Notes: generated from the sequence alone by a model not told the origin. Shown: positions 4,799 through 53,086, counted from the stretch's first letter. The stretch is 64,000 bases of DNA from Nostoc carneum NIES-2107 (GCA_002368155.1 AP018180.1:4199380-4263379); one strand, 5' to 3'. A program made the numbers and translations.

Positions 4799-5836
4799 AT
4801 GGGAAACAACATTAAAATTGGTGTCATTGGCTATGGTTATTGGGGCCCGAATTTAGTCCGGAATTTTTCGGAAATCCCAGGTGCAGAAATCAAAACAGTC
4901 AGCGATTTTAAACCAGAGTTACTGGCAAAGGTACAGGCAAGATATCCCAAAATTAATGTAACAACAGATTGTCGCGATATCTTCACAGATCCGACGATTG
5001 ATGCGGTGGCGATCGCCACACCAGTCTCCACCCATTTTGATTTAGCTTTAGCTGCATTAAAAGCAGGAAAGCACGTACTGGTAGAAAAACCAATGACCGT
5101 TTCCTCTGAGCAAGCACTGCGTTTGATCGATGAGGCGGAAAAACGCAATTTGGTGCTAATGGTAGATCATACCTTTGTCTACACGGGTGCAGTCCGCAAG
5201 ATGCGGGACTTAGTGGTGACAAATGCTTTAGGTGATATTTATTACTACGACTCTGTACGCGTTAATTTAGGGCTATTCCAGCATGATGTGAACGTGATTT
5301 GGGATTTGGCAGTACATGACCTATCAATTATGAACTATGTTCTGCAATCTCAACCTTATGCAGTGTCAGCAACAGGGATCAGCCATGTTCCTGGCGAACC
5401 AGAAAATATCGCTTATTTAACTTTGTTTTTTGAAAGCAACTTAATAGCTCACATTCATGTCAACTGGCTCGCACCCGTGAAAGTGCGCCGGACTCTGATT
5501 GGTGGTTCTCAAAAGATGATCGTGTTTGATGATTTGGAACCTAGTGAAAAGCTGAAAGTATATGACAAAGGACTGATCCTCAACGGTCATACCGAAAGCG
5601 TTTACCAAATGCTGATTGGTTACCGCACAGGTGATATGTGGTCGCCGCAATTAGACATGACAGAAGCATTGCGAACCGAAGGCTTACATTTCATTAATTG
5701 TATCCAAACAGGCGATCGCCCCATTACTGATGGGGAAGCAGGACTGCGGGTAGTGAGAATTCTCGAAGCTGCAAGCCAGTCCCTCAAGCAACATGGCCGA
5801 TTAGTTGAACTAAATTTAGCAGAGGTGGCAGCGTGA
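4799..5836 (+). CDS. Gfo/Idh/MocA-family NAD-dependent sugar oxidoreductase (WbpB-like UDP-GlcNAcA 3-dehydrogenase)
   Basis: N-terminal Rossmann motif IGVIGYGYWGPN, the EKP motif (VLVEKPM), and overlap with the downstream DegT gene. Confidence 0.75.
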   Translation: MGNNIKIGVIGYGYWGPNLVRNFSEIPGAEIKTVSDFKPELLAKVQARYPKINVTTDCRDIFTDPTIDAVAIATPVSTHFDLALAALKAGKHVLVEKPMTVSSEQALRLIDEAEKRNLVLMVDHTFVYTGAVRKMRDLVVTNALGDIYYYDSVRVNLGLFQHDVNVIWDLAVHDLSIMNYVLQSQPYAVSATGISHVPGEPENIAYLTLFFESNLIAHIHVNWLAPVKVRRTLIGGSQKMIVFDDLEPSEKLKVYDKGLILNGHTESVYQMLIGYRTGDMWSPQLDMTEALRTEGLHFINCIQTGDRPITDGEAGLRVVRILEAASQSLKQHGRLVELNLAEVAA

Positions 5837-6942
5837 TTCCATTCGTAGATCTCAAAGCTCAGTATCTCAGTATCAAAGACGAAATTGATAGCGCTGTTCT
5901 CAAAGTCTTAGAAAGTACTCAATTTGTTTTGGGTAATGAAGTTAAAGCTTTAGAAGCAGAATTTGCTGACTATTGCAATGCAGATTTTGGTATAGCTGTT
6001 AATACTGGTACTAGCGCTCTGCATCTAGCATTATTAGCAGCAGGTATCGGTGCAGGTGATGAAGTGATTACTGTACCTTTTACCTTTGTCGCTACAACCG
6101 CCGCGATTTGTTATACCGGAGCCAGACCAGTTTTTGTTGATATCGATCCGATTACTTACACCATAGATGTCAGCAAAATCGAACAAGCGATTACCGAACG
6201 CACTAAAGCCATTCTGCCTGTACATTTGTACGGTCAACCAGCAGATATGGAACCGATTATGGAAATCGCGCGCCGTCATGGTTTGACAGTAATTGAAGAT
6301 GCTGCCCAAGCTCATGGTGCAGAGTACAAGGGACGGCGGGTAGGTAGTATTGGGGATATTGGCTGCTTTAGTTTTTACCCTGGTAAAAACTTAGGAGCTT
6401 ATGGTGAAGGTGGGATGATCGTTACTAGTAACCCCGAATACACCCACACAATGCAAATGTTACGCGACTGGGGTCAAGAACGCAGATATCACCATGTCCT
6501 CAAAGGTTATAACTACCGCATGGATGGTATCCAAGGGGCGATTTTACGGGTGAAATTACGCTACATCGAAGAGTGGACAGAAGCTAGAAGAACTCACTCC
6601 GCCCAGTACAATCAACTTTTAGCCAATTCTGGTTTAAGTACACCTGTAGCCTTACCTCACAATCGCCACGTTTATCATGTCTATGCAGTGCGGACTTCCC
6701 AAAGGGAATGGCTACAACAACAGCTAAATGCACAAGAAATTCAAACAGGGATTCATTACCCCATCCCAGTTCACCTGCAAACAGCTTACTCTGATTTAGA
6801 TTACAAACCAGGTGATTTTCCCCACTCAGAATTAGCCGCTAGAGAAGTACTTTCCCTACCCATGTATGCTGAACTTACAGCCACACAAGTGAGCAAAGTA
6901 GCTAATAGCCTCCAAAACATTCTCCAGGGAGTGGCTGTTTAA
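5833..6942 (+). CDS. DegT/DnrJ/EryC1/StrS PLP-dependent sugar aminotransferase (WbpE-like)
   Basis: Family-typical segments: FVLGNEV..LE.EFA.Y, ALHLALLAAGIG.GDEVI, IEDAAQAHGA.Y.G..VGS.GD..CFSFYP.KNL. Start overlaps the previous stop (ATGA). Confidence 0.8.
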   Translation: MIPFVDLKAQYLSIKDEIDSAVLKVLESTQFVLGNEVKALEAEFADYCNADFGIAVNTGTSALHLALLAAGIGAGDEVITVPFTFVATTAAICYTGARPVFVDIDPITYTIDVSKIEQAITERTKAILPVHLYGQPADMEPIMEIARRHGLTVIEDAAQAHGAEYKGRRVGSIGDIGCFSFYPGKNLGAYGEGGMIVTSNPEYTHTMQMLRDWGQERRYHHVLKGYNYRMDGIQGAILRVKLRYIEEWTEARRTHSAQYNQLLANSGLSTPVALPHNRHVYHVYAVRTSQREWLQQQLNAQEIQTGIHYPIPVHLQTAYSDLDYKPGDFPHSELAAREVLSLPMYAELTATQVSKVANSLQNILQGVAV

Positions 6943-7949
6943 TGAGCGATCTCCGTCCTGGTTTAAACCCCCATCGCCTTGTTTCCTTGGTACGTCAAGC
7001 TGTTGAACGTTGTGATTTGCAATTGCAAAACGCGATCGTGCTGACAGAAGCCGCAACAGGGGCCTATGCTGTGACACCAATTGTAGCTGCGATCGCTGGA
7101 GCCGAGAAAGTCTTGGCGATCGCCAAGACTACGCGTTATGGTACCGTAGAACAAGTGCAAGCTCTGACAAAGCAACTCGCTGATATTGCAGGAGTGAGTG
7201 ATCGCATTGAATTTATCGCCGAAAAAACTCCAGATATTGTTGCTCAAGCGGATATCATTACCAACAGCGGCCATGTTCGCCCAATTAATGCAGAGATGAT
7301 TGGTTGGATGAAACCGAATGCTGTCATTGGCTTAATGTACGAAGCTTGGGAATTTAGACCAGAAGACTTGGATCTAATTACCTGTCGTCTCAAAGGTATC
7401 CAGGTTGTAGGGGTGAACGAACGTCATCCAGCAGTAGATGTCTTTTCCTTTTTGGGAATTATGGCAGTCAAACAATTGCTGGATGCGGGAATTTCCGTTT
7501 ATACCAGCAATATTTTATTGTTATGTGATAATCCTTTTCAGCGATTTATTGAGCGTGGTTTAGTCCAAGCTGGTGCCACAGTAGATACTGTTGATAGCCT
7601 TGCTACTGCATCTATTAATAAAAACTACGATGCCATTCTCGTAGCTTTACAACCACGCCTAGAACCAATATTAGGCGCTAAAGATGCGGCAATAATTGCT
7701 AAATATTGGCCAGGTACATTAGTTGCTCAATACTGGGGGGACATTGAGCGATCGGGTTTTGCTACTCAGAATATACCCGTATCTCCCGAAGTTGAGCCAA
7801 AACCAGGACACATGGGCATTCTCCCATCAGCCGTGGGGCCAGAACCAATTGTCCGCCTACAAACAGGCGGACTCAAAGCGGCTGAAGTAATTTGGCGGCA
7901 ATCTTTCCAACAGCAAACATCTGGTTTGGAATTTGTGCAACTCCTGTGA
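6942..7949 (+). CDS. Hypothetical protein (possibly Rossmann-like), conserved within the sugar-modification operon
   Basis: Long ORF translationally coupled to the flanking genes (start overlaps the upstream stop). No recognisable motif. Confidence 0.45.
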   Translation: MSDLRPGLNPHRLVSLVRQAVERCDLQLQNAIVLTEAATGAYAVTPIVAAIAGAEKVLAIAKTTRYGTVEQVQALTKQLADIAGVSDRIEFIAEKTPDIVAQADIITNSGHVRPINAEMIGWMKPNAVIGLMYEAWEFRPEDLDLITCRLKGIQVVGVNERHPAVDVFSFLGIMAVKQLLDAGISVYTSNILLLCDNPFQRFIERGLVQAGATVDTVDSLATASINKNYDAILVALQPRLEPILGAKDAAIIAKYWPGTLVAQYWGDIERSGFATQNIPVSPEVEPKPGHMGILPSAVGPEPIVRLQTGGLKAAEVIWRQSFQQQTSGLEFVQLL

Positions 7950-7960
7950 GGAATTAGTCA

Positions 7961-8929
7961 ATGGTCAATGTACTACTAATTGGTATAGGTACCACTACTT
8001 TAACTGCCTTAGAATCCTTAATTTCTCAGTGTCATGTTCAAGGAATAGTGCGTTATACCGATACAGATGATCCTGTAGCTAATTTAGCTCAAACAGCAAA
8101 TATTCCCATATTTACAGATACCTCACAAACAGCAATTAAAGCACTGATTCTCAAACTTCAGCCAGATTGCGTGGTAGTTTCATCCTATAATCAAATTCTG
8201 CCACCTGCACTGATTGAACTGTCTACATTCATCAATGTTCATTATTCTCCTTTACCCCAATATCGAGGACGGGCTAACGTTAATTGGGCAATTATTAATG
8301 ACGAACCTTGTGCGGCAATTAGCATTCATAAAATTTCACCTGATTTAGATGAAGGAAATATTTTATTTCAGCAGCTAATTCCCATTCACCGCAATGACAC
8401 AGTAGCTGATTTGTATGACAGATTAAATGAAATTCAGCAGCAAAATTTAGGCGAGACAGTTGTTAAAGCCTTTAATGCTTACCCAGGAGTTCAGCAAAAT
8501 AACGCCGAAGCTACTTATGGTTGTACTCGCCTACCTGAAGATGGTGAGATTAATTGGTCGGCTTCTACTAGAAGTATAGATTGTTTAATCCGATCATTAG
8601 TGGCACCTTTTCCTGGAGCTTATACATATTTTCAAGGACAGAAACTCACAGTTTGGCAAGCCATGCCTGTTGAGAATCCGCCTGTTTATGTAGGACGCAT
8701 ACCCGGTAGAATTATCAATAGATCTAAAACAGATGGTTTTGTTGATGTGTTGACTGGTAATGGAGTACTGAGAATTTTTGCAGTTCAATTGACTGGAAAA
8801 GAAAAAACAGCAGCAGCTAATATCATTAAGTCTGTGAAAACTACTTTAGGCTTACAAACATCTGATTTACTCAATCGTATTCAAATTTTAGAAGCACAAA
8901 TTAAGCAATTACAAGAAAATGCAAAATAA
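7961..8929 (+). CDS. Formyltransferase-family protein (Fmt/ArnA-N-like), probable sugar N-formyltransferase
   Basis: HYSPLPQYRGRANVNWAII motif (formyl-transferase catalytic region, cf. HxSLLPxxRG). Located between aminotransferase and epimerase genes. Confidence 0.7.
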   Translation: MVNVLLIGIGTTTLTALESLISQCHVQGIVRYTDTDDPVANLAQTANIPIFTDTSQTAIKALILKLQPDCVVVSSYNQILPPALIELSTFINVHYSPLPQYRGRANVNWAIINDEPCAAISIHKISPDLDEGNILFQQLIPIHRNDTVADLYDRLNEIQQQNLGETVVKAFNAYPGVQQNNAEATYGCTRLPEDGEINWSASTRSIDCLIRSLVAPFPGAYTYFQGQKLTVWQAMPVENPPVYVGRIPGRIINRSKTDGFVDVLTGNGVLRIFAVQLTGKEKTAAANIIKSVKTTLGLQTSDLLNRIQILEAQIKQLQENAK

Positions 8930-9893
8930 GCGCGTATTAATTACAGGTGGAGCAGGTTTAGTTGGCTCCCATATTGCCGATTTATTAGTTAAAGAAGGCG
9001 TATCGGAAATTATTATTCTAGATAACTTCACACGCGGACAAATTAAAAATTTGGCATGGGCAAAAGAACAAGGGCCCTTAGTAGTTGTAGAAGGCGATAT
9101 TAGAGACCAAAAACTGCTAGGCGAAGTTATGCAAGGCGTTGATGTTGTCTTTCATCAAGCAGCTATTCGCATTACTCAATGTGCAGAAGAACCACGTTTA
9201 GCTTTAGAAGTTTTAGCAGATGGCACTTTCAACGTATTGGAAGCCGCTGTTAAAGCAGGTGTAAAAAAGGTTGTAGCTGCTTCTTCTGCTTCTATTTACG
9301 GGATGGCAGAGGATTTCCCCACCACAGAATCCCATCACCCATACAATAACCGCACCCTTTATGGTGCAGCCAAGGTCTTTAATGAAGGCTTATTACGCAG
9401 TTTCCATGATATGTATGGGCTAGATTATGTAGGATTACGCTACTTCAATGTCTATGGCCCGCGGATGGATATATACGGTGTTTATACTGAAGTTTTGATT
9501 CGCTGGATGGAACGCATCGCTACAGGTCAACCACCATTAATTTTCGGTGATGGCAAACAAACAATGGACTTTGTATATATCGAAGACATTGCTAGAGCCA
9601 ATATTTTAGCAGCTAAAGCTGATGTTACTGATGAGGTGTTTAACATTGCCAGTGGTGTAGAAAGCAGTTTGAATGACCTCGCTTATAGTTTGGCGAAAGT
9701 CATGGGGTCAGATTTACAGCCAGAATACGGCCCAGAACGCAAAGTCAACCCTGTACAACGTCGATTAGCAGATGTGAGCAAAGCTCAAGAATTATTGGGT
9801 TTTGAAGCCCAAGTATCTTTAGAAGAAGGATTGCAACGGTTGGTAAGTTGGTGGCGCGAGCAAAAGCTGGCAAAGGAAGCAAGCAATGTCTGA
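8919..9893 (+). CDS. NAD-dependent epimerase/dehydratase (SDR family; UDP-sugar 4-epimerase or 4,6-dehydratase-like)
   Basis: TGGAGLVGSHI glycine-rich NAD motif and a YGAAK (YxxxK) catalytic motif. Confidence 0.75.
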   Translation: MQNKRVLITGGAGLVGSHIADLLVKEGVSEIIILDNFTRGQIKNLAWAKEQGPLVVVEGDIRDQKLLGEVMQGVDVVFHQAAIRITQCAEEPRLALEVLADGTFNVLEAAVKAGVKKVVAASSASIYGMAEDFPTTESHHPYNNRTLYGAAKVFNEGLLRSFHDMYGLDYVGLRYFNVYGPRMDIYGVYTEVLIRWMERIATGQPPLIFGDGKQTMDFVYIEDIARANILAAKADVTDEVFNIASGVESSLNDLAYSLAKVMGSDLQPEYGPERKVNPVQRRLADVSKAQELLGFEAQVSLEEGLQRLVSWWREQKLAKEASNV

Positions 9894-30435: not shown

Positions 30436-30501
30436 GTTTGATTAGCTCAGTGGTAGAGCAGCCGAAGAGGTCGGACGTAGGTTCGAGTCCTACATCAAAC
30501 A
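30436..30501 (+). tRNA. tRNA-like pseudogene: intact acceptor/D/T arms but a truncated anticodon arm (4-bp stem, 5-nt loop) and almost no variable loop
   Basis: Folded by hand. Acceptor GTTTGAT/ATCAAAC, D-arm GCTC-AGTGGTA-GAGC, T-arm GTAGG-TTCGAGT-CCTAC. Only 16 nt between D and T arms, against 21-22 expected. No CCA encoded. Confidence 0.4.
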
Positions 30502-30504
30502 CCC

Positions 30505-30579
30505 AGGAAGTTAGCTCATTGGTAGAGCAATCGACTCATAATCGATGTGTTACAGGTTCGATTCCTGTACTTTCAACCA
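30505..30579 (+). tRNA. tRNA with anticodon CAT (Met elongator or Ile2-lysidine type). Encodes CCA. Position 1:72 is an A-A mismatch.
   Basis: Folded by hand. D-arm GCTC-ATTGGTA-GAGC; anticodon stem ATCGA/TCGAT with loop CTCATAA; T-arm ACAGG-TTCGATT-CCTGT; acceptor AGGAAGT/ACTTTCA; discriminator A; CCA. Confidence 0.55.
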
Positions 30580-30604
30580 CCCTGTCTGGGTCAAAAGACA
30601 AATT

Positions 30605-30678
30605 TGCGGAATAGAGCAGCGGTAGCTCGTTGGAATTAGTATCCAAAGATCAGTGGTTCAAATCCACTTTCTGCCCCA
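30605..30678 (+). tRNA. Unusual tRNA-like gene: class-I (short variable arm) structure with anticodon UAG, T at position 37, and a T-C mismatch at 1:72
   Basis: Folded by hand. D-arm GAGC-AGCGGTA-GCTC; anticodon stem TTGGA/TCCAA with loop ATTAGTA; T-arm AGTGG-TTCAAAT-CCACT; acceptor TGCGGAA/TTCTGCC. Flanked by direct repeats GTCYGGGTCAAAAGACA. Confidence 0.4.
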
Positions 30679-41310: not shown

Positions 41311-41445
41311 AACTTAAGGGTCAAGGGTCAAGGGTCAAAGGTCAAAAGTAATTTGCCCCATTACCCATTACCCATTACCCATTACCCATTATCCATTACC
41401 CATTACCCATTCCCCATTCCCCATTACCCATTCCCCAACGCCCTC
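41311..41445. repeat. STRR block ((AAGGGTC)n, then (CCATTAC/CCATTCC)n)
   Basis: Tandem heptamers visible directly. It overlaps the 3' end of the SfnB-like ORF. Confidence 0.85.
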
Positions 41446-42599
41446 TTACCCAACGACATACAAATTGCATCATTCTGCGGGGTATGGATGCGGCTGCATA
41501 GAACGTCACGATAGTATCTTTCTAAAGGGTTATGGCGTGATAAACCAGGATTACCAATTAGTTCTAGTCCTGTTTCAACGGCGCGAATGGCGTTACTTGT
41601 AGTGATGTATTTTACGGAGTGCGCCTGTAATGCTACGGTGTTATCATACTCAGCGCGGTCGATATCGTGGGCTAAACCGTAAATTAGGCGATCGCTTGCG
41701 TAGAGTAAAGCTTCTATTTCACCCATCGCAGTTTGAAAGCGAGGTAGAGTGGCTAAACTAGCTCCTAAGTTAGAAGGCGATCGCTCATTTAAATAACCTA
41801 CTAACCAATCACGGGCGGCTTTGGCTACACCTTGATACAAAGCACTCAGCCACAGGCTATTACCAGCTAATTGCAGGGGGTCTGCTAATGACCAAGCTGA
41901 CAATGGACGAATATCTAAAGCGTATTCTAAAGGAATCAAGACATTTTCTATAATTAGGTCGTGGCTACCAGTAGCCCGCATTCCCAAATGATCCCAAGTC
42001 TCTGCAATTCTTACACCAGGCACATCACGAGGTACGAGAAAATTCCCTACTCGCGGTTCTGGCTCTGTGGTACGCGCCCAAACAACGAAGTAGCTTAAAA
42101 TTGGGCTACCTGTAGTGTATATTTTATGACCATTTAACAGCCAACCATCTGGGGTTTGTTGGGCTGTGCTTGCAGGTAATCCACCCCTCGCTGGTGTACC
42201 TAATTCTGGTTCGACACGGGCAGCATTTAATAAAGCAATACCTGCCACCGATTCCCGACACAACCGTTGATAAATCTCATCTGGCCAGCGACGCGAACGG
42301 CTAGCATTAGCGTGTTGGAGATAATGCATCGTCAACACTAAAGCCGTAGCAGCATCCCCAGTAGCTATAGTTTCAATCACCCGACTGACAGCAGCATATC
42401 CTAAAGCCTGTCCGCCGAACTCTTTAGGAACAGTCAAATTCAAAAGCTGCGCTTGCTGGAGAGCAGTAAAATTCTCAAATGGAAAAGAACCATCGCGATC
42501 GTGAACTGCAGCGCGAGTAGCAAAGTCAGCAGCCAGAGAAGCCACACGCTCAAATAAATCGGTGCTAGGTGTCACTGGAGATGTATTAAGTTTGACCAT
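41424..42599 (-). CDS. Acyl-CoA dehydrogenase-fold flavoprotein, SfnB/DszC-like sulfur-acquisition oxidoreductase
   Basis: Acyl-CoA dehydrogenase-like architecture and size. Sits next to ssuDE. Confidence 0.6.
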   Translation of the reverse strand: MVKLNTSPVTPSTDLFERVASLAADFATRAAVHDRDGSFPFENFTALQQAQLLNLTVPKEFGGQALGYAAVSRVIETIATGDAATALVLTMHYLQHANASRSRRWPDEIYQRLCRESVAGIALLNAARVEPELGTPARGGLPASTAQQTPDGWLLNGHKIYTTGSPILSYFVVWARTTEPEPRVGNFLVPRDVPGVRIAETWDHLGMRATGSHDLIIENVLIPLEYALDIRPLSAWSLADPLQLAGNSLWLSALYQGVAKAARDWLVGYLNERSPSNLGASLATLPRFQTAMGEIEALLYASDRLIYGLAHDIDRAEYDNTVALQAHSVKYITTSNAIRAVETGLELIGNPGLSRHNPLERYYRDVLCSRIHTPQNDAICMSLGKRALGNG

Positions 42600-42654
42600 A
42601 TTTACTTCTTCTGCGTTTACAAAGTACAGCAGGGCGGCAATTTATTTATTGTCA

Positions 42655-42790
42655 TATAAATGGGGATTGGGGATTAGGGACTGGGGACTGGGTGAAAGAG
42701 ATGAGAGAGATGAGGGGGATGAGGAGGCACGGAGAAATATCTATTACCAATTACCCAATGCCCAATGCCCCATGCCCAATGCCCCTTATA
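42655..42790. repeat. STRR block (GGGGATT/GGGGACT ... CCAATTA/CCAATGC)
   Basis: Tandem heptamers visible directly. Confidence 0.85.
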
Positions 42791-42881
42791 ATTCTGCCAA
42801 TAGAAGTAACAATCGAGGTAGAGGTAATCACAGAAAGCTTTCACTAGAGTAGAAGCACTAAAGTAACCTAAAAGATTTGCA

Positions 42882-45392: not shown

Positions 45393-46325
45393 ATGGAAGC
45401 CTTGCTACATAACCCAATTGCAGATATGTACGGGCCAAACTTCTTACTGTTGTATGGTATTGTCATTAGCTTGACACTTTTAGGTTGCTGGAAACTTGTA
45501 CAAGATCCGACAACAAATCAACCCTTACCTTTAATCCCTAGCGAACCAGATCCTTATGAAGTTGCTTACTTCCGTGAGGGAGCATTAGAAGTAGTAAAGG
45601 TAGCAATTTTGAGTTTAATTCAAAAGAATTATTTACAGATTACTGGAGAGAAAATTAGCCAAACCTTAGAGCATGGAGATGTATTGCAATTGCATCCTAT
45701 AGAGAGGGAAGTCTTTTTTAGCTATTCAACTACTCCAGAAGCAAAATCTCTCTGGTTAATAGCCTCGAAAGTACAATCATATTGCGATAATTTTGAAGAA
45801 AAACTACGCAATGAGCAACTATTATATGCTCAAGAATGGCAAAGATGGAATTATAAAGTTGGCTTAATTGCAGCCACAATTATTTGCAGTTTAGGTAGTT
45901 ATAAGCTCCTGATTGCCTTAGAGAATAACCATCATAATGTCAACCTGCTCATATATATGGCTGTCATATCGATAATGTGTATTTTATGGCTTAGCCGGAT
46001 GCGATCGCGTCTTAGCTATCGAGGACAAGCTTACCTCAAACAACTCCAAGATACATTTGCTCAATTGAAGACCAAGGCAAAGAATTCTAGCTTCCTTTCA
46101 GTATTTAATTACAACTTGCTAGTAGCACTCTTTGGCGTAGAAGCACTCGCTGGTACTGAATACGATTCATACTACAAAGTTTTCTATCCTGCTACATCTA
46201 GAACAAGTAGCCAAAGAAGTAATTCCTCTGATAGTGGTTGCAGTAGTGGAAGTTCCTGCGGTGGTGGGAGTTCCTGCGGTGGCGGTTGCGGCGGTGGCTG
46301 CGGTGGCTGCGGTGGTGGTGATTAA
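45393..46325 (+). CDS. TIGR04222-type polytopic membrane protein with a C-terminal Ser/Cys/Gly-rich tail; candidate substrate of the downstream DUF692 enzyme
   Basis: Several transmembrane helices. C-terminus SRTSSQRSNSSDSGCSSGSSCGGGSSCGGGCGGGCGGCGGGD. The stop lies 6 bp before the DUF692 gene start. Confidence 0.65.
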   Translation: MEALLHNPIADMYGPNFLLLYGIVISLTLLGCWKLVQDPTTNQPLPLIPSEPDPYEVAYFREGALEVVKVAILSLIQKNYLQITGEKISQTLEHGDVLQLHPIEREVFFSYSTTPEAKSLWLIASKVQSYCDNFEEKLRNEQLLYAQEWQRWNYKVGLIAATIICSLGSYKLLIALENNHHNVNLLIYMAVISIMCILWLSRMRSRLSYRGQAYLKQLQDTFAQLKTKAKNSSFLSVFNYNLLVALFGVEALAGTEYDSYYKVFYPATSRTSSQRSNSSDSGCSSGSSCGGGSSCGGGCGGGCGGCGGGD

Positions 46326-46331
46326 GAAATT

Positions 46332-47165
46332 ATGCTATCTCATCTCCCTAATTTAGGTGTGGGGTTAGGCTTTAGAGAGCTATTTAAAAGTGACTTGTTT
46401 CTCAATCGTCAGCCAGTAGACTTTTTGGAAATTGTTGCTGAACATTATTTAGATGCGCCAGTAGCAAAACAGCAGGAATTAGAATTGCTGGCGGCGCATT
46501 TTCCCCTAATTCCCCATGCAATTAATCTGTCTTTGGGTAGCGCTGAAGGTTTGGATAGAGATTATTTAGCTAAACTAGCAGAACTAATTAAGCAGCTTAA
46601 CCCGCCTTGGTGGAGTGAACATCTTAGTTTTACTAAAGCAGGGGGAATTGATATCGGACATTTATCACCGCTACCATATACCCAGGAAGCTGTGGAAGTA
46701 GTTTGTCGCAACATAGCTGAGGTACGTCGCTGGATTGATGTGCCATTAATACTGGAAAATATTACTTATATGGTGGCGCTTCCTGGTGCGGAGATGACAG
46801 AAGCCCAATTTTTAGCAGAAGTTGCAGAACGTGCTGATTGCGGGTTGCTTTTAGATGTGACGAATCTCTACACTAATGCTGTCAACCACGGTTATGATGT
46901 GCAGCAGTTTCTCCAACAATTACCACTAGAACGTATTGTACAGTTGCATTTCGTCGGCGGACATTGGCATGATGGCGTTTTGCTTGATAGCCATTCCCAC
47001 TCAACACCAGTAGAAATTTGGCAACTGATGGATGATGTTGTCGCCAAGTTTCCAGTTAAAGGAATTGTTCTCGAACGAGATGAAAATTTGCCAGCCTTTG
47101 CAGAATTAGTAGCAGAACTGCAACAAGCACGACATATCGCCAGGAGTCATGGTAAATGGGTTTAG
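46332..47165 (+). CDS. DUF692-family multinuclear non-heme iron oxidative enzyme (MNIO; MbnB/TglH-like), TIM-barrel xylose-isomerase-like fold
   Basis: Characteristic N-terminus LGVGLGFR....L......VDFLE...E.Y, ~277 aa. Downstream overlap with a DUF2063 gene. Confidence 0.8.
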   Translation: MLSHLPNLGVGLGFRELFKSDLFLNRQPVDFLEIVAEHYLDAPVAKQQELELLAAHFPLIPHAINLSLGSAEGLDRDYLAKLAELIKQLNPPWWSEHLSFTKAGGIDIGHLSPLPYTQEAVEVVCRNIAEVRRWIDVPLILENITYMVALPGAEMTEAQFLAEVAERADCGLLLDVTNLYTNAVNHGYDVQQFLQQLPLERIVQLHFVGGHWHDGVLLDSHSHSTPVEIWQLMDDVVAKFPVKGIVLERDENLPAFAELVAELQQARHIARSHGKWV

Positions 47166-47737
47166 CACAAACGCAGCAGGTTTTAGCCCAACTGTATACT
47201 AATACTGAATTTAGGAACAGTTTCTTTGTTAACCCAAAAGTCGTTGGTGCAGAATTGGGATTAAGCGATGCCGAAATAGAGAATTTATCTCAACTTGCTG
47301 CCTCACAAGTCAACCTATTTGCCAGTTCTCTTAAGTGGAAGCGATTAAATTTATTGTCAAAATTATTACCTCGTGCAACAAGCGCTCTGGGTAAAAACTT
47401 CAAAACTTTATTTTGGCAGTATGCAGAAACTTATATACCCCAGGGTATCAAGAAACATCGACAAGATGCGATCGCCTTTGCTGACTTTATCGTCAAAACC
47501 TCTCAGTTAGAAGAGTTAGAACCAATTTGGCTGAGTGATTTAGTACGCTACGAACAAGCCTGGCTATTAGCCGAGGAACTAAATCACGGCTTGAAAGTAT
47601 ATTGGTTTCGTTATCCCGTTGACAAACTAGGGACTAGTGACGAGAAAATTGCTCCGCAATTCACAATCGCTGTATGGTGGCGTTTCACGATGCGATCGCC
47701 TCTACATCATACTGTGCAATCGCTATTTATCAAGTAA
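47156..47737 (+). CDS. DUF2063-like partner protein of the MNIO (MbnC/TglI-like)
   Basis: Start overlaps the DUF692 stop (translational coupling). N-terminus TQQVLAQLYTNTEFRNSFFVNP resembles the DUF2063 'putative DNA-binding domain'. Confidence 0.6.
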   Translation: MGLAQTQQVLAQLYTNTEFRNSFFVNPKVVGAELGLSDAEIENLSQLAASQVNLFASSLKWKRLNLLSKLLPRATSALGKNFKTLFWQYAETYIPQGIKKHRQDAIAFADFIVKTSQLEELEPIWLSDLVRYEQAWLLAEELNHGLKVYWFRYPVDKLGTSDEKIAPQFTIAVWWRFTMRSPLHHTVQSLFIK

Positions 47738-48313: not shown

Positions 48314-51300
48314 ATGGTGAAGAAAACAGTTTTTTTAACAAGCAATGCTGATGTTTGGGGAGGCTGGGAAAACGGTATTGAATATGAGGTTTCCGCCTTC
48401 GAGGGTAACGATAAACTGTACGGCTATATTGGCAATGACACTCTAGATGGTGGCGATGGTGACGACCAAATTTATAGCGGTGCTGGAGATGATATTTTAA
48501 TCGGTGGATTAGGCAACGATTTATTAGATGGTGGCGATGGCAATGACATTTTAGATGGTGGATTAGGTGACGATACACTGATTGGTGGCAACGGGGATGA
48601 TATCGTTTTTGGCGGTGATGGTAACGATCAGATTAGCGGTGGTGCTGGGAATGATATCCTCAACGGGGACAACGGTAATGATGTAATTAATGGTGGTGCA
48701 GGATACGACATCATCACTGGCGGTATGGGTAATGACGTGATTGATGGCGGCGATGGCAATGATACCATCTATGGTGGTGATGGGGATGATGGCTGGATAT
48801 TTGGTGGTTTAGGGAATGACAGCATTGATGGCGGAACGGGAAATGACACCATAGATGGTGGCGATGGTAATGATACCCTCACAGGTGGCGATGGTATTGA
48901 CCTACTCATGGGTAATAATGGCAATGATTCCATCTCTGGTGGTGCTGGGAATGACAACATCGATGGTGGAGCAGGCAATGATACCATCTCTGGTGGTGAA
49001 GGCGACGATAGAATTAATGGCGGCGCTGACAATGACACCATCTGGGGCGATATAGGCAATGACTACATTATCGGTGGACTAGGCTTTGACACCATTGCTG
49101 GCGGTATGGGTAATGACACCATTGATGGTGGTGATGGTAATGATGTGATTGCTGGTGGCGATGGTGATGACAGCTGGTTATTCGGTGGTTTAGGGAATGA
49201 CAGCATTGATGGTGGTGCAGGGAACGACACCCTAGATGGTGGCGATGGCGATGATACCTTGAGAGGCGGTGATGGGATTGATGTCCTCACAGGTAATAAT
49301 GGCAATGATGCCATTTCTGGTGGAGAAGGCGACGATAAAATTTATGGCGGCGCAGATAATGACATTATCTGGGGCGATGCTGGTAATGATTACATTAGCG
49401 GTGGTACAGGGAATGACACTATCTATGGCGGTATCGGCAATGATGTGATTGATGGTGGTGATGGCAATGACGTGATTGCGGCTGGTGATGGCGATGATGG
49501 CTGGTTATTTGGCGGTTTAGGGAATGACAACATTGATGGTGGTACAGGTAATGACACCTTAGATGGTGGCGAAGGTGATGATACCCTTACAGGTGGTGAT
49601 GGTATTGACCTACTCATGGGTAATAATGGCAATGATTCCATCTCCGGTGGTGCTGGCAATGACAACATTGATGGTGGAGCAGGTAATGATGTCATCTCTG
49701 GTGGTGAAGGCGACGATAAAATTAATGGCGGCGCTGATAATGACACCATTTGGGGTGATCTTGGTAATGATTACCTCAGCGGTGGTTTAGGTTTTGACAC
49801 CATTTATGGCGGTATCGGCAATGACACTATTGATGGTGGCGATGGCAATGATGTGATTGCTGGTGGCGATGGTGATGACAGCTGGTTATTCGGTGGTTTA
49901 GGGAATGACAGCATTGATGGTGGTTTAGGAAATGACACCCTAGATGGTGGCGATGGCGATGATACCTTGACAGGCGGTGATGGGATTGATGTCCTCACAG
50001 GTAATAATGGCAATGATTTCATTGCTGGTGGAGAAGGCGACGATAAAATTTATGGCGGCGCTGACAACGATACCATCTGGGGCGATGCTGGCAATGATTA
50101 CATTAGCGGTGGTACAGGGAATGACACCATATATGGTGGCATCGGTAATGACGTGATTGATGGTGGTGATGGCAATGATGTGATTGCTGGTGGTGATGGT
50201 GATGATAGCTGGTTGTTCGGTGGTTTAGGTGCAGACAACATCGATGGTGGTGTAGGGAACGATACCCTAGATGGCGGCGAAGGTGATGATACCCTCACAG
50301 GCGGTGATGGTAATGATCTACTCATGGGCAATAATGGCAACGATCTCCTCTCTGGTGGTACTGGCAATGACACCATCTATGGAGGAGACGGGAATGATAC
50401 CATTTGGGCTGATGCTGGCAATGATGTGATTGCTGGTGGTGCCGGAAATGACACCATTGGTGGTGGTGCTGGAATTGACAACATTGATGGTGGCGATGGT
50501 AATGATTTCATTTATGGTGGTGACGGTGATGATGTTTGGTTATTTGGTGGTTTAGGCGCAGACAGGATAGATGGTGGTGCAGGGAACGATACCCTAGATG
50601 GTGGAGAAGGTGATGATACTCTCACAGGTGGTGATGATAATGATGTTCTCCGGGGTGGAAATGGTAATGATGCCCTTTATGGTGAAGCTGGAAATGACAA
50701 CATTGAAGGTGGTTTTGGGCTAGATACCATTGGTGGTGGTGACGGCGACGATAAAATCAATGGCGGCGCTGATGACGATACCATCTGGGGCGATGCTGGT
50801 AATGATTACATTAGTGGTGGAACAGGTAATGACAACATTAGTGGTGGAACAGGTAATGACACCATTAGTGGCGGTGACGGCGATGATAAAATCAATGGTG
50901 GCGCTGATGACGATACCATCTGGGGCGATGCTGGCAATGATTACATTAACGGCGGTACTGGTAATGACATTCTTGCTGGAGGTGCAGGTAATGACATCAT
51001 CGATGGTGGTGATGGTAATGATGTAATTAATGGTGGCGAAGGTGATGATAGTTGGTTATTCGGTGGTTTAGGTAATGACAAAATAGATGGCGACTTGGGG
51101 AATGACACCATTGATGGTGGAGAAGGTGATGATACGCTCCTCGGTGGTGATGGTAATGATATCCTCACTGGTGGCAATGGTAATGATTCCCTCATTGGTG
51201 GTGCTGGGATTAACGTCCTTGATGGGGGTGAAGGCGATGATACCCTCATCGGTGGTGACAGTACTGATGTGATCAAAGCTGGGAATGGTAATGACATCAT

Positions 51301-53086
51301 TGATGGTGGCGCTGGTAATGACATCATTAATGGTGGTGCTGGCAATGATTACCTTAAGGGTGGTAATGGTAGTGATACCCTTGATGGCGCTGGCGCAGCC
51401 ATCTTGAGCATTAACTCAATAGATACTCTAGTAGGTGGGTTAAATGCTGATATCTTTATCTTGGGTGACAGCCTCAAGAGTTACTACGATGATGAAGACG
51501 CTACCACTAACGGCGTAAAAGATTACGCTATCATCGACGATTTCAATCGTTTTGAAGATGTAATTCGCCTGCATGGTTCACTCGGTGAATATGTTGTTGG
51601 TGGCATTTCGGATCAATTGACAACTGTATTTAATACTAGTAATGCATCAGGTATTTATGTAGATACCGACAAAAATGGAAGCTGGAATGATACAGACGAA
51701 TTAATCGCAGTGGTGAAGAATTTAACTCCCGGTAAATTAGTGCTGAGTGGCGATTATTTTCAATACACCGATACACCAAATGCAACTGCTTGGCATCCCA
51801 GTAAAGATGCTGGCTGGGAACTAGTATTTAGCGATGAATTTAACGGTACAAGCCTATCTTTAGATAAGTGGAATACACGCTATACTCTGCAAAATTTATA
51901 TGGCGGTAGAAACAATCCCTGGAATCAGGAATTGCAATACTACGTTGGTGATAATGAAGTCATCAATGGCACAGTTTATGACGGGTTTGAATTTAAGAAT
52001 GGCACTGTCAGCATTGTTGGCAAAAAAGTTAGCACACCCATTACCGCTGCAATTGGTGAATTTGCCCTTGGTTTTGATGAGGTGAAAACATTCAATTACA
52101 CCTCCGGAATGCTTAACACTGAAAATAAAGAAGCATTCACCTATGGCTATATGGAAATTCGCGCTAAAGCACCTAGTGGACAAGGACTTTGGCCTGCCTT
52201 TTGGATGTTACCTTCTTCAGGAAAATGGCCCCCAGAAATTGATGTCATGGAGACAGTGGGGCAAAAAACAGACACTGTAATTAACTCGTTCCATTCTTTG
52301 GGTGCTGACGGTTTAAATAACGATACAGCATCTCAAAATTTCACTGGAGTTGATTTCTCTCAAGATTTCCATACCTATGGAGTTAAATGGGAAACAGACA
52401 AATTAACTTGGTACATCGATCAACACGCTGTATTTGAAACTAAAAATAATATTCCTGATGTACCAATGTACTTGTTAGCTAATCTGGCAATTGGTGGTAA
52501 ATTCCCCGGTTCTCCAGATGCAAGTACTCCCGCAATCAACAATTATGATATAGATTACGTTCGTGTTTACCAAGATGCATCGGGTAGCCTTTACGGTGGC
52601 TCTAACGATGATGTATTAGAAAAACAATTGGGCAGCATTTTTGGGTTATCAGGGAATGATGTGATCAAAGGCGGAATTGGCAATAACACCCTAGATGGTG
52701 GCGATGGCAATGATATCTTAATTGGCGTAAATACTACAGTTGCTCAACCTGGTGCTGGTGAAGTAGATACGTTAATAGGTGGTGCAGGTCAAGATAAATT
52801 CGTCTTAGGCGACAGTACCAAGTTCTATTATGACGATCGCAATAATTTAGTGACTGGTTTAGGCGGCTATGCTGTGATCAAAGATTTCAATGCAGCCCAA
52901 GATGTCATCCAGTTAAATGGTAAAGCTAGTGACTATGTACTTGGCGCAGTATCTTCTCTCAATGGTACGGGAATTTATCGCGATATTAACGGCGATCGCA
53001 CTCTCGGTTCCACAGATGAGTTAATTGCAGTCGTCCAAGGAGATACAGGATTGAATTTGACGCAGAATTCTTTCTTGTACGTTTAG
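48314..53086 (+). CDS. Giant secreted RTX (hemolysin-type calcium-binding repeat) protein with an embedded GH16 beta-glucanase (laminarinase-like) domain and additional C-terminal RTX repeats; probable T1SS substrate
   Basis: More than 100 GGxGxDxLxGG nonapeptide repeats. GH16 catalytic motif EIDVME (within [13 protein letters not shown]), plus WPAFWML. Confidence 0.8.
48420..51400. repeat. Intragenic tandem array of RTX nonapeptide units organised into higher-order repeats of roughly 350-380 bp (~120 aa); about 8 copies
   Basis: The block [48 protein letters not shown] recurs with near identity at the DNA level. Confidence 0.8.

Follow-up and report, generated by a model that had tools for sequence, protein, structure and literature searches.

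The cyanobacterium Nostoc carneum NIES-2107 encodes a polytopic membrane protein that ends in a low-complexity run of serine, glycine and cysteine, and the next gene on the chromosome codes for an MNIO (DUF692) enzyme. Does this enzyme act on the cysteines of the tail and, if so, what is made of them? The question was addressed by computational analysis of a window of 64,000 nucleotides (assembly GCA_002368155.1, AP018180.1:4199380-4263379), to which all coordinates without a locus prefix refer, and of related loci (prefix L) from other genomes. Our analysis favours, with moderate confidence, an interpretation of the region 45393..47737 as a self-contained cassette, in which the MNIO and its partner modify the tail cysteines, most likely to 5-thiooxazoles serving as membrane-tethered copper ligands.

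TIGR04222-MNIO-PME-type 2 clusters, together with the proposal that their Cys-bearing tails are substrates, have been described by Leprevost et al. (Microb Genom 2025; PMC12452194) without experiments. The substrate hypothesis for the tail was reached independently in that work and hence is not new, and the present locus is a cyanobacterial addition to the published clusters. It shares with them the order of a TIGR04222 gene, an MNIO gene and a partner gene without DUF2063 signature, as well as a Ser/Gly tail with interspersed cysteines. The published survey is mostly concerned with Actinomycetota and leaves cyanobacteria unmentioned, whereas the locus described here is cyanobacterial. A C-G3-C-G-G-C-G-G terminus, tandem paralogues and a radical SAM alternative are absent from PMC12452194; our analysis adds this terminal motif, the finding that the partner is nearly always present in the subfamily, tandem precursor paralogues and the replacement of the MNIO by radical SAM/SPASM enzymes. 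Our search of the literature, including papers that appeared after the survey, found no report of modification of any TIGR04222 protein.

The TIGR04222 membrane protein and its tail

The first gene of the cassette (45393..46325, + strand) codes for a TIGR04222 domain-containing membrane protein of 310 aa, the putative precursor or substrate. It belongs to NCBIfam family TIGR04222 with 83.3 bits, above the curated cutoff of 43, residues 20-253 covering profile positions 3-229 of 229; a weak match to PF20990 (DUF2207_C) was also found. Sixty-two homologues of the protein were recovered, the nearest of them in Tolypothrix tenuis PCC 7101 with 93% identity. The AF2 model (pLDDT 82) shows residues 1-265 as confidently folded, with helices at 14-36, 147-178 and 183-202 and strands at 81-84 and 87-90. 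Three clear transmembrane helices (aa 14-36, 156-176 and 183-203; 45432..46001, +) were delimited by hydropathy windows above 1.4, and a soluble domain with a helix-helix-beta-hairpin element (aa 37-155) lies between them. Alignment and hydropathy further revealed a conserved short hydrophobic segment, h4 (aa 237-253, NLLVALFGVEALAGT; 46101..46151, +), of 17 aa with a mean hydropathy of 1.48, which may be a fourth membrane span. Residues V244, G248, L252 and T255 in or near h4 are invariant in 19 sequences. The protein therefore has the family trait of several transmembrane segments and an unstructured Ser/Gly-rich C-terminus, with three clear hydrophobic helices and one borderline.

The folded part is followed by a disordered Ser/Gly/Cys tail (aa 266-310; 46188..46322, +), the putative core region, which is delimited by composition, pLDDT and comparison with homologues. 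Its 45 residues, the last of the protein (ATSRTSSQRSNSSDSGCSSGSSCGGGSSCGGGCGGGCGGCGGGD), comprise 16 Gly, 13 Ser and 6 Cys (35/45, 78%), and pLDDT falls below 50 over residues 270-310. A low-complexity tail over the last ~45 codons, grading from Ser-rich to Gly-rich, had been recognized in the sequence-only reading; both features are borne out, the gradient recurs in the homologue consensus, the quoted peptide is the exact end of the ORF and the quoted DNA string was found at 46274-46319. Two of its details had to be corrected. Position 46190, given as the tail start, falls on the last base of a Pro codon, and in frame the tail begins at 46188 (P266) or 46191 (A267). The tail also holds six cysteines and not seven, which is likewise the number in the peptide string that accompanied the claim.

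The six cysteines (C283, C289, C295, C299, C303 and C306 of the translation; 46239..46310, +) all fall within the last 28 residues, forming a Cys-rich segment near the C-terminus with spacings of 6, 6, 4, 4 and 3 residues. Gly follows the cysteine in 5/6 cases and Ser in 1/6. The tail closes with the stretch CGGGCGGCGGGD, and alignment defines a conserved C-terminal motif C-G-G-G-C-G-G-C-G-G-G (46287..46319, +). At the DNA level, short tandem repeats underlie the tail (46246..46320, +), as indicated by in-frame indels and by Tandem Repeats Finder, which reported short overlapping arrays with periods of 9, 12, 15, 18 and 24 nt and scores of 41-67. Elsewhere in the window, the intergenic segments 41353-41514 and 42562-42852 carry short tandem heptamer-type repeats, HYPLPIT-like when translated, which are typical of Nostocales repetitive DNA and unrelated to the tail cassette.

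Conservation of the tail among relatives

Homologues were searched with the TIGR04222 protein deprived of its tail, and the tail-less alignment led to a sample of 79 related genome loci with 90 tails, tandem paralogues included. A Cys/Gly/Ser tail was present in 60/60 full-length homologues of 31-93% identity. In a 44-sequence alignment (34-93% identity), G304, G305 and C306 never vary, and conservation reaches at least 90% at C283, C299, G301, G302, C303 and G307; these tail positions are as conserved as the best-conserved ones of the membrane domain. No tail among the 90 has fewer than 3 Cys (median 7, maximum 14), and the cysteines are spaced mainly 3-6 residues apart. Gly occupies the position behind 69% of the cysteines and Ser that behind 29%, together 98%, so that the earlier argument from "Cys followed by a small residue" holds across the sample, and a Cys-Gly preference is experimental for a related MNIO, the dyad being the preferred context of FonBC. 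The arrangement C-G(2-5)-C-G-G-C-G occurs inside the final 16 residues of 65/90 tails, 77/90 tails end 1-3 residues past the last Cys, and most finish with C-G3-C-G-G-C-G-G.

Repetitive DNA of this kind raises the possibility that the tail is a low-complexity linker made by slippage and devoid of a specific role, its Cys and Gly residues being a by-product of a TGC-GGT-GGC repeat. Detectable short tandem repeats agree with such an origin, and so does the four-fold range of tail length between relatives, from 25 to 106 aa. Comparison with the three closest relatives (L001, L002 and L003) revealed in-frame indels of 18, 6 and 3 nt in the tail, together with synonymous TGC/TGT and GGC/GGT changes that keep the peptide. 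Tail length therefore does vary between strains, as the sequence-only reading had suggested, and so does the number of cysteines, by in-frame indels of repeat units. Since every indel is in frame and the codon changes are synonymous, repeat units are gained and lost under protein-level selection. Invariant Cys and Gly positions across 34-93% identity and conservation of the terminal motif over five phyla likewise contradict slippage without function, which is strongly disfavoured and, in our estimation, very improbable. Judged by these alignments, the tail is more than chance low complexity. Its interpretation as a core region draws on the fact that a query lacking the tail still recovered Cys/Gly/Ser tails with a shared terminal motif in 90/90 cases.

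The MNIO enzyme and its partner

The MNIO gene (46332..47165, +; 277 aa) starts 6 nt past the TIGR04222 stop codon. The enzyme matches PF05114 with 306 bits (cutoff 25), and its best NCBIfam matches are BufB (248 bits, cutoff 310) and HvfB (223 bits, cutoff 360), below the equivalog cutoff in both cases; ApyH (127 bits), ChrH (69) and MbnB (49) score lower. A sequence search of the PDB gave 3BWW (2e-40) and TglH (2e-31) as the nearest solved structures. Residues H62, H97, E142, D175, N178, H206, D219, H221 and E248 lie in motifs that align with 3BWW and TglH and, by analogy with the MbnB and TglH structures, are candidate iron ligands. The motif LERDEN (residues 247-252) includes LERD with the proposed catalytic Asp, and the Glu that follows this Asp is near-invariant in TIGR04222-linked MNIOs. 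This specificity position is taken by Phe in characterised thiooxazole-forming MNIOs with Lys-Cys substrates and by Asp in those with Cys-Lys substrates.

The third gene (47156..47737, +), which overlaps the MNIO gene by 10 nt, codes for a partner protein of 193 aa, which is 100% identical to a protein of Nostoc carneum NIES-2107 and so agrees with the origin of the window. No family match, DUF2063 included, was found for it in the local Pfam copy, whereas its predicted fold matches NGO1945 and TglI, which are equally good structural matches. The fold and the lack of a Pfam DUF2063 signature led us to assign the protein to "PME-type 2" as defined in PMC12452194. Judged from the predicted model, the partner is structurally akin to proven or accepted MNIO partners.

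Gene order across loci

The three genes form a compact unit (45393..47737) with a 6-nt gap followed by a 10-nt overlap. Among the 79 loci retrieved, 78 could be assessed for the neighbourhood of the tail gene, and 69 of these (88%) have an MNIO gene immediately downstream of it in the same orientation. The partner follows the MNIO in 66/79 loci, whereas PME-type 2 proteins occur in only about 10% or more of the TIGR04222 clusters surveyed in PMC12452194. Loci with the cassette span Cyanobacteria, Acidobacteriota, Armatimonadota, Planctomycetota and Verrucomicrobiota. Among more distant members (26-29% identity), 3/4 tested have the MNIO next door, and those keep the tail too.

Tail loss in orthologues that retain the MNIO, proposed earlier as a check, was not encountered: every intact TIGR04222 gene adjoining an MNIO has the tail. 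The sole exception among MNIO-adjacent genes is found in a Mojavia pulchra MAG (L014:7001-7962), where the tail was removed by a deletion of ~750 bp that fuses TIGR04222 at ~residue 243 to the MNIO at ~residue 181. Along with the tail, the first ~180 MNIO residues are gone, and the partner gene is intact. The fusion may represent a pseudogene or have arisen as an artefact in assembly; since one deletion takes both the tail and the MNIO N-terminus, it is in line with the two forming parts of one cassette.

Eleven loci (L021, L023, L024, L027, L028, L029, L030, L034, L039, L047 and L050) have 2-3 tandem TIGR04222 paralogues, each Cys-tailed with up to 14 Cys, before a single MNIO, an arrangement seen in many Nostocales. 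The paralogues of L034, for example, lie at 5789-6895, 7001-7954 and 8103-9047, and the Nostoc carneum locus has one copy. Tandem paralogues ahead of one MNIO are typical of multiple precursor genes.

Clustering of the neighbouring ORFs of all loci showed that a K+ channel, a deaminase and other neighbours are common only within Nostocales, for which reason the cassette was delimited to three genes. Outside Nostocales, no protease, exporter or copper gene is conserved beyond the three-gene module. A hidden small precursor was considered and ruled out, as the spacers measure 6 nt and -10 nt and the flanking ORFs are short and Cys-poor; no other Cys-rich ORF is present in or around the cassette. 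Promoter and terminator scans performed no better than on shuffled sequence. No Rfam regulatory element was detected near the cassette, the only hits being distant tRNAs. The latter belong to a cluster at 30436-30677 (+), in which Rfam calls three genes (30436-30501, 30505-30576 and 30605-30676) and ARAGORN only tRNA-Met(cat) and tRNA-Leu(tag); the first Rfam tRNA (30436-30501) may be degenerate.

Several further arrangements were observed around the cassette and its relatives. In Nostocales, inserts separate the TIGR04222 and MNIO genes at L004:8110-8946, L009:8003-8839, L011:8026-8916, L005:8230-8822 and L006:8230-8526, consisting of small HNH-nuclease-like/antitoxin-like or ParD/ParE-like pairs, and the insert at L008:7997-8788 is a truncated, tail-less TIGR04222 paralogue. 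Being toxin-antitoxin-like/HNH modules or a truncated paralogue, these inserts were rejected as members of the system. An Acidobacteriota locus has a class I methyltransferase-like ORF between the two genes (L076:8128-8973), and in L066, L069, L070 and L077 the partner homologue does not adjoin the MNIO but is found 0.5-2 kb further downstream; extra tailoring genes are possible in such Acidobacteriota loci. On a metagenome contig, a MerR-family regulator gene (L081:3259-3828) stands immediately upstream of a distant TIGR04222-MNIO pair, which in this one locus hints at metal-responsive control.

In the Nostoc carneum window, a gene 0.6 kb downstream of the cassette (48314-53086, +) encodes a protein of 1590 aa that is built mostly from calcium-binding nonapeptide repeats of the GGxGxD type (RTX-like), with a domain resembling a glycoside hydrolase at the C-terminus; its position next to the cassette is not conserved (1/79 loci). 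Farther upstream, an unbroken run of ~18 closely packed ORFs of 229-560 aa on one strand (3958-24501, +) apparently forms one very long operon.

Radical SAM/SPASM enzymes in place of the MNIO

The tail is found without an MNIO in 9/78 assessable loci, and in 7/9 of these a radical SAM/SPASM gene occupies the place of the MNIO. These genes (L044:4244-5350, L046:7951-9030, L051:7945-9021, L061:5966-7030, L068:8089-9108, L074:1791-2972 and L079:7933-9024) come directly after the tail gene, starting right at the tail end, and stand for both MNIO and partner. They encode proteins of ~350-390 aa that share a CNLRCxHC motif and, with the L046 enzyme as search query, show 54-69% identity to it. The hosts comprise Pirellulaceae, a delta proteobacterium MAG, Desulfomonile, Verrucomicrobiota and Syntrophobacteraceae; in a rough NJ tree without support values, the rSAM-linked proteins are not monophyletic. 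No homologue of these enzymes was found within the window.

The best NCBIfam family of the enzymes from L044, L046, L074 and L079 is SbtM (TIGR04082), with 125-157 bits against a cutoff of 350; only the C-terminal part of the profile (190-515) is matched, and other SPASM maturase families score similarly. The swap is for these reasons no proof of identical chemistry. With 9/78 such loci, the tail is far from being equally present without DUF692, another point on which the sequence-only reading could be checked, and the replacement of one maturase by another strengthens the view of the tail as a modification substrate. Tail conservation, MNIO adjacency and radical SAM replacement all support the earlier proposal of the tail as core region.

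A further explanation to be weighed is that the Cys cluster works unmodified, as a metallothionein-like, Fe-S-binding or redox-active element, and that the MNIO acts elsewhere or loosely co-occurs. Cys-Gly-rich peptides are able to bind soft metals without modification. L052, L075 and the separately retrieved L084 keep the tail without a maturase within 4-7 kb, and they are the only loci to do so. In the literature, a third of the genomes that encode TIGR04222 proteins are reported to lack any MNIO (PMC12452194). Against this stand the position of the MNIO directly behind the tail gene in the large majority of loci and of a radical SAM/SPASM enzyme in most of the others, the lack of an alternative small Cys-containing ORF in the cassette, and the joint deletion of tail and MNIO in L014. 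An unmodified cluster is thus rated as quite improbable, and a modified tail remains our preferred interpretation.

The lineages with the MNIO include Cyanobacteria, Pyrinomonadaceae and Chthonomonadaceae, and those with the radical SAM enzyme include Desulfomonile and Syntrophobacteraceae. The maturase swap may be linked to oxygen lifestyle: MNIOs would depend on O2, radical SAM/SPASM enzymes would be O2-sensitive, and the lineages with the latter include strict anaerobes. As a tentative extension, to which we give less credence than to the cassette itself, lifestyle could decide which of two unrelated enzyme families matures the same tail, MNIO and partner in aerobes or radical SAM/SPASM enzymes in anaerobe-containing lineages, both yielding a membrane-displayed string of thiooxazole ligands. 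The product would then be a membrane-anchored captophorin that is never released and that might, in the plasma or thylakoid membrane of cyanobacteria, buffer copper or hand it over.

Proposed mechanism and comparison with known systems

From the gene arrangement and the conservation described above we infer that the tail is the substrate of the cassette enzymes, and we propose the following mechanism. The O2-dependent multinuclear iron enzyme and its DUF2063/TglI-like partner would modify the cysteines of the tail post-translationally, in the cytoplasm. Leader and anchor would be the folded membrane part at the N-terminus, and the tail would be the core. Each Cys would be converted to a 5-thiooxazole by four-electron oxidation, and the modified tail would form a membrane-tethered string of soft-metal (Cu) ligands. 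Since no protease or exporter gene accompanies the cassette, the product probably stays attached to the membrane and is not released as a peptide.

Thiooxazole chemistry is suggested by the products of the closest families. BufB and HvfB are reported to place 5-thiooxazoles on Cys residues of copper-binding peptides (PMC11626156), and FonB likewise converts Cys to thiooxazole; all three use oxygen. SbtM, the best match of the radical SAM enzymes, turns Cys or Sec into thio(seleno)oxazole. By analogy with these enzymes, the chemistry of the cassette is probably 5-thiooxazole formation and its function probably copper binding.

The bufferins, oxazolin and fontiphorin ("captophorins") offer the closest parallel, with BufB and HvfB as the nearest MNIO families by sequence. 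Captophorin substrates are Cys-rich and repetitive, with a small residue behind Cys, and are encoded in clusters of few genes without a protease; the tail studied here shares the Gly or small residue after the target Cys. Several Cys are converted per captophorin substrate, six in oxazolin and seven in fontiphorin. Captophorin precursors, in contrast, are small and secreted, with Sec signal peptides and EGKCG-like motifs, whereas the putative precursor here is a polytopic membrane protein of 310 aa whose Cys stand in S/G-C-G/S contexts, and BufB, HvfB and FonB use DUF2063 (PME-type 1) partners, whereas the partner here has no DUF2063 signature. The protein is thus neither a small precursor nor provided with a PME-type 1 partner.

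Other characterised systems are less similar. In methanobactin synthesis (MbnA/MbnB/MbnC), an MNIO and its partner also act on a Cys before a small residue to make a copper ligand; neither an equivalog-level MbnB score nor an MbnC partner was found here. In the TglHI (3-thiaglutamate) pathway, a carrier peptide is extended by one C-terminal Cys, whose beta-carbon is then excised by TglH, whereas the tail has six internal Cys, the last of them 4 residues from the C-terminus. The SbtM radical SAM system is related through the best family of the enzymes found beside the same tail type in seven relatives; it has no occurrence in this window, and the relatives score below the TIGR04082 cutoff.

As this MNIO does not reach the equivalog cutoffs of BufB and HvfB, its chemistry may differ from theirs, and two further features count against identical chemistry: the tail has no Lys or Glu flanking its Cys as in EGKCG-type substrates, and the enzyme has Glu where the characterised groups have Phe or Asp. 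The MNIO might therefore modify the tail to something other than thiooxazoles, such as oxazolone-thioamide, the product of a TglH-type beta-carbon excision or Cys-derived crosslinks, with a copper role being optional. MNIO reactions are very diverse, and the characterised thiooxazole systems use PME-type 1 partners and not a type 2 partner as here. The MNIO falls short of every equivalog cutoff, TglI matches the predicted structure of the partner as well as NGO1945 does, and thioether crosslinks are common among SPASM enzymes, to judge by family names. On the other side, the enzyme is far nearer to BufB and HvfB than to ApyH, ChrH or MbnB in bit score, and TIGR04222-linked MNIOs have been placed near the bufferin and oxazolin enzymes (PMC12452194). 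A different product is considered unlikely, and 5-thiooxazoles remain the favoured one.

Position of the tail relative to the membrane

The side of the membrane on which the tail may sit was assessed by positive-inside counts. The loop between TM3 and h4 has a mean of 6.8 Lys+Arg, and this richness in Lys/Arg indicates a cytoplasmic location. Since the loop is taken as cytoplasmic, h4 decides the side of the tail, which would lie outside only if h4 spans the membrane and would otherwise stay cytoplasmic. Published TIGR04222 models assume that h4 crosses the membrane and that the tail is outside (PMC12452194). If h4 does span the membrane, modification of the tail must precede its translocation. 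The charge counts would also place the domain at aa 37-155 in the cytoplasm, whereas other TIGR04222 family members have been described with "large periplasmic domains" (PMC12452194).

Implications

The characterised MNIO substrates are all small soluble peptides, and the question whether bona fide membrane proteins can be MNIO substrates as well has been posed in PMC12452194. The Nostoc carneum cassette is compact and hence provides a convenient test case, as its three genes include a single putative precursor with six well-defined Cys and a partner with a recognized fold. Its sharply conserved terminal motif defines the likely core, and the radical SAM alternative in seven relatives, several of them from anaerobic lineages, is an independent pointer to the chemistry. 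If the proposed modification proves true, thiooxazole metallophores would extend from secreted peptides to membrane-anchored proteins.
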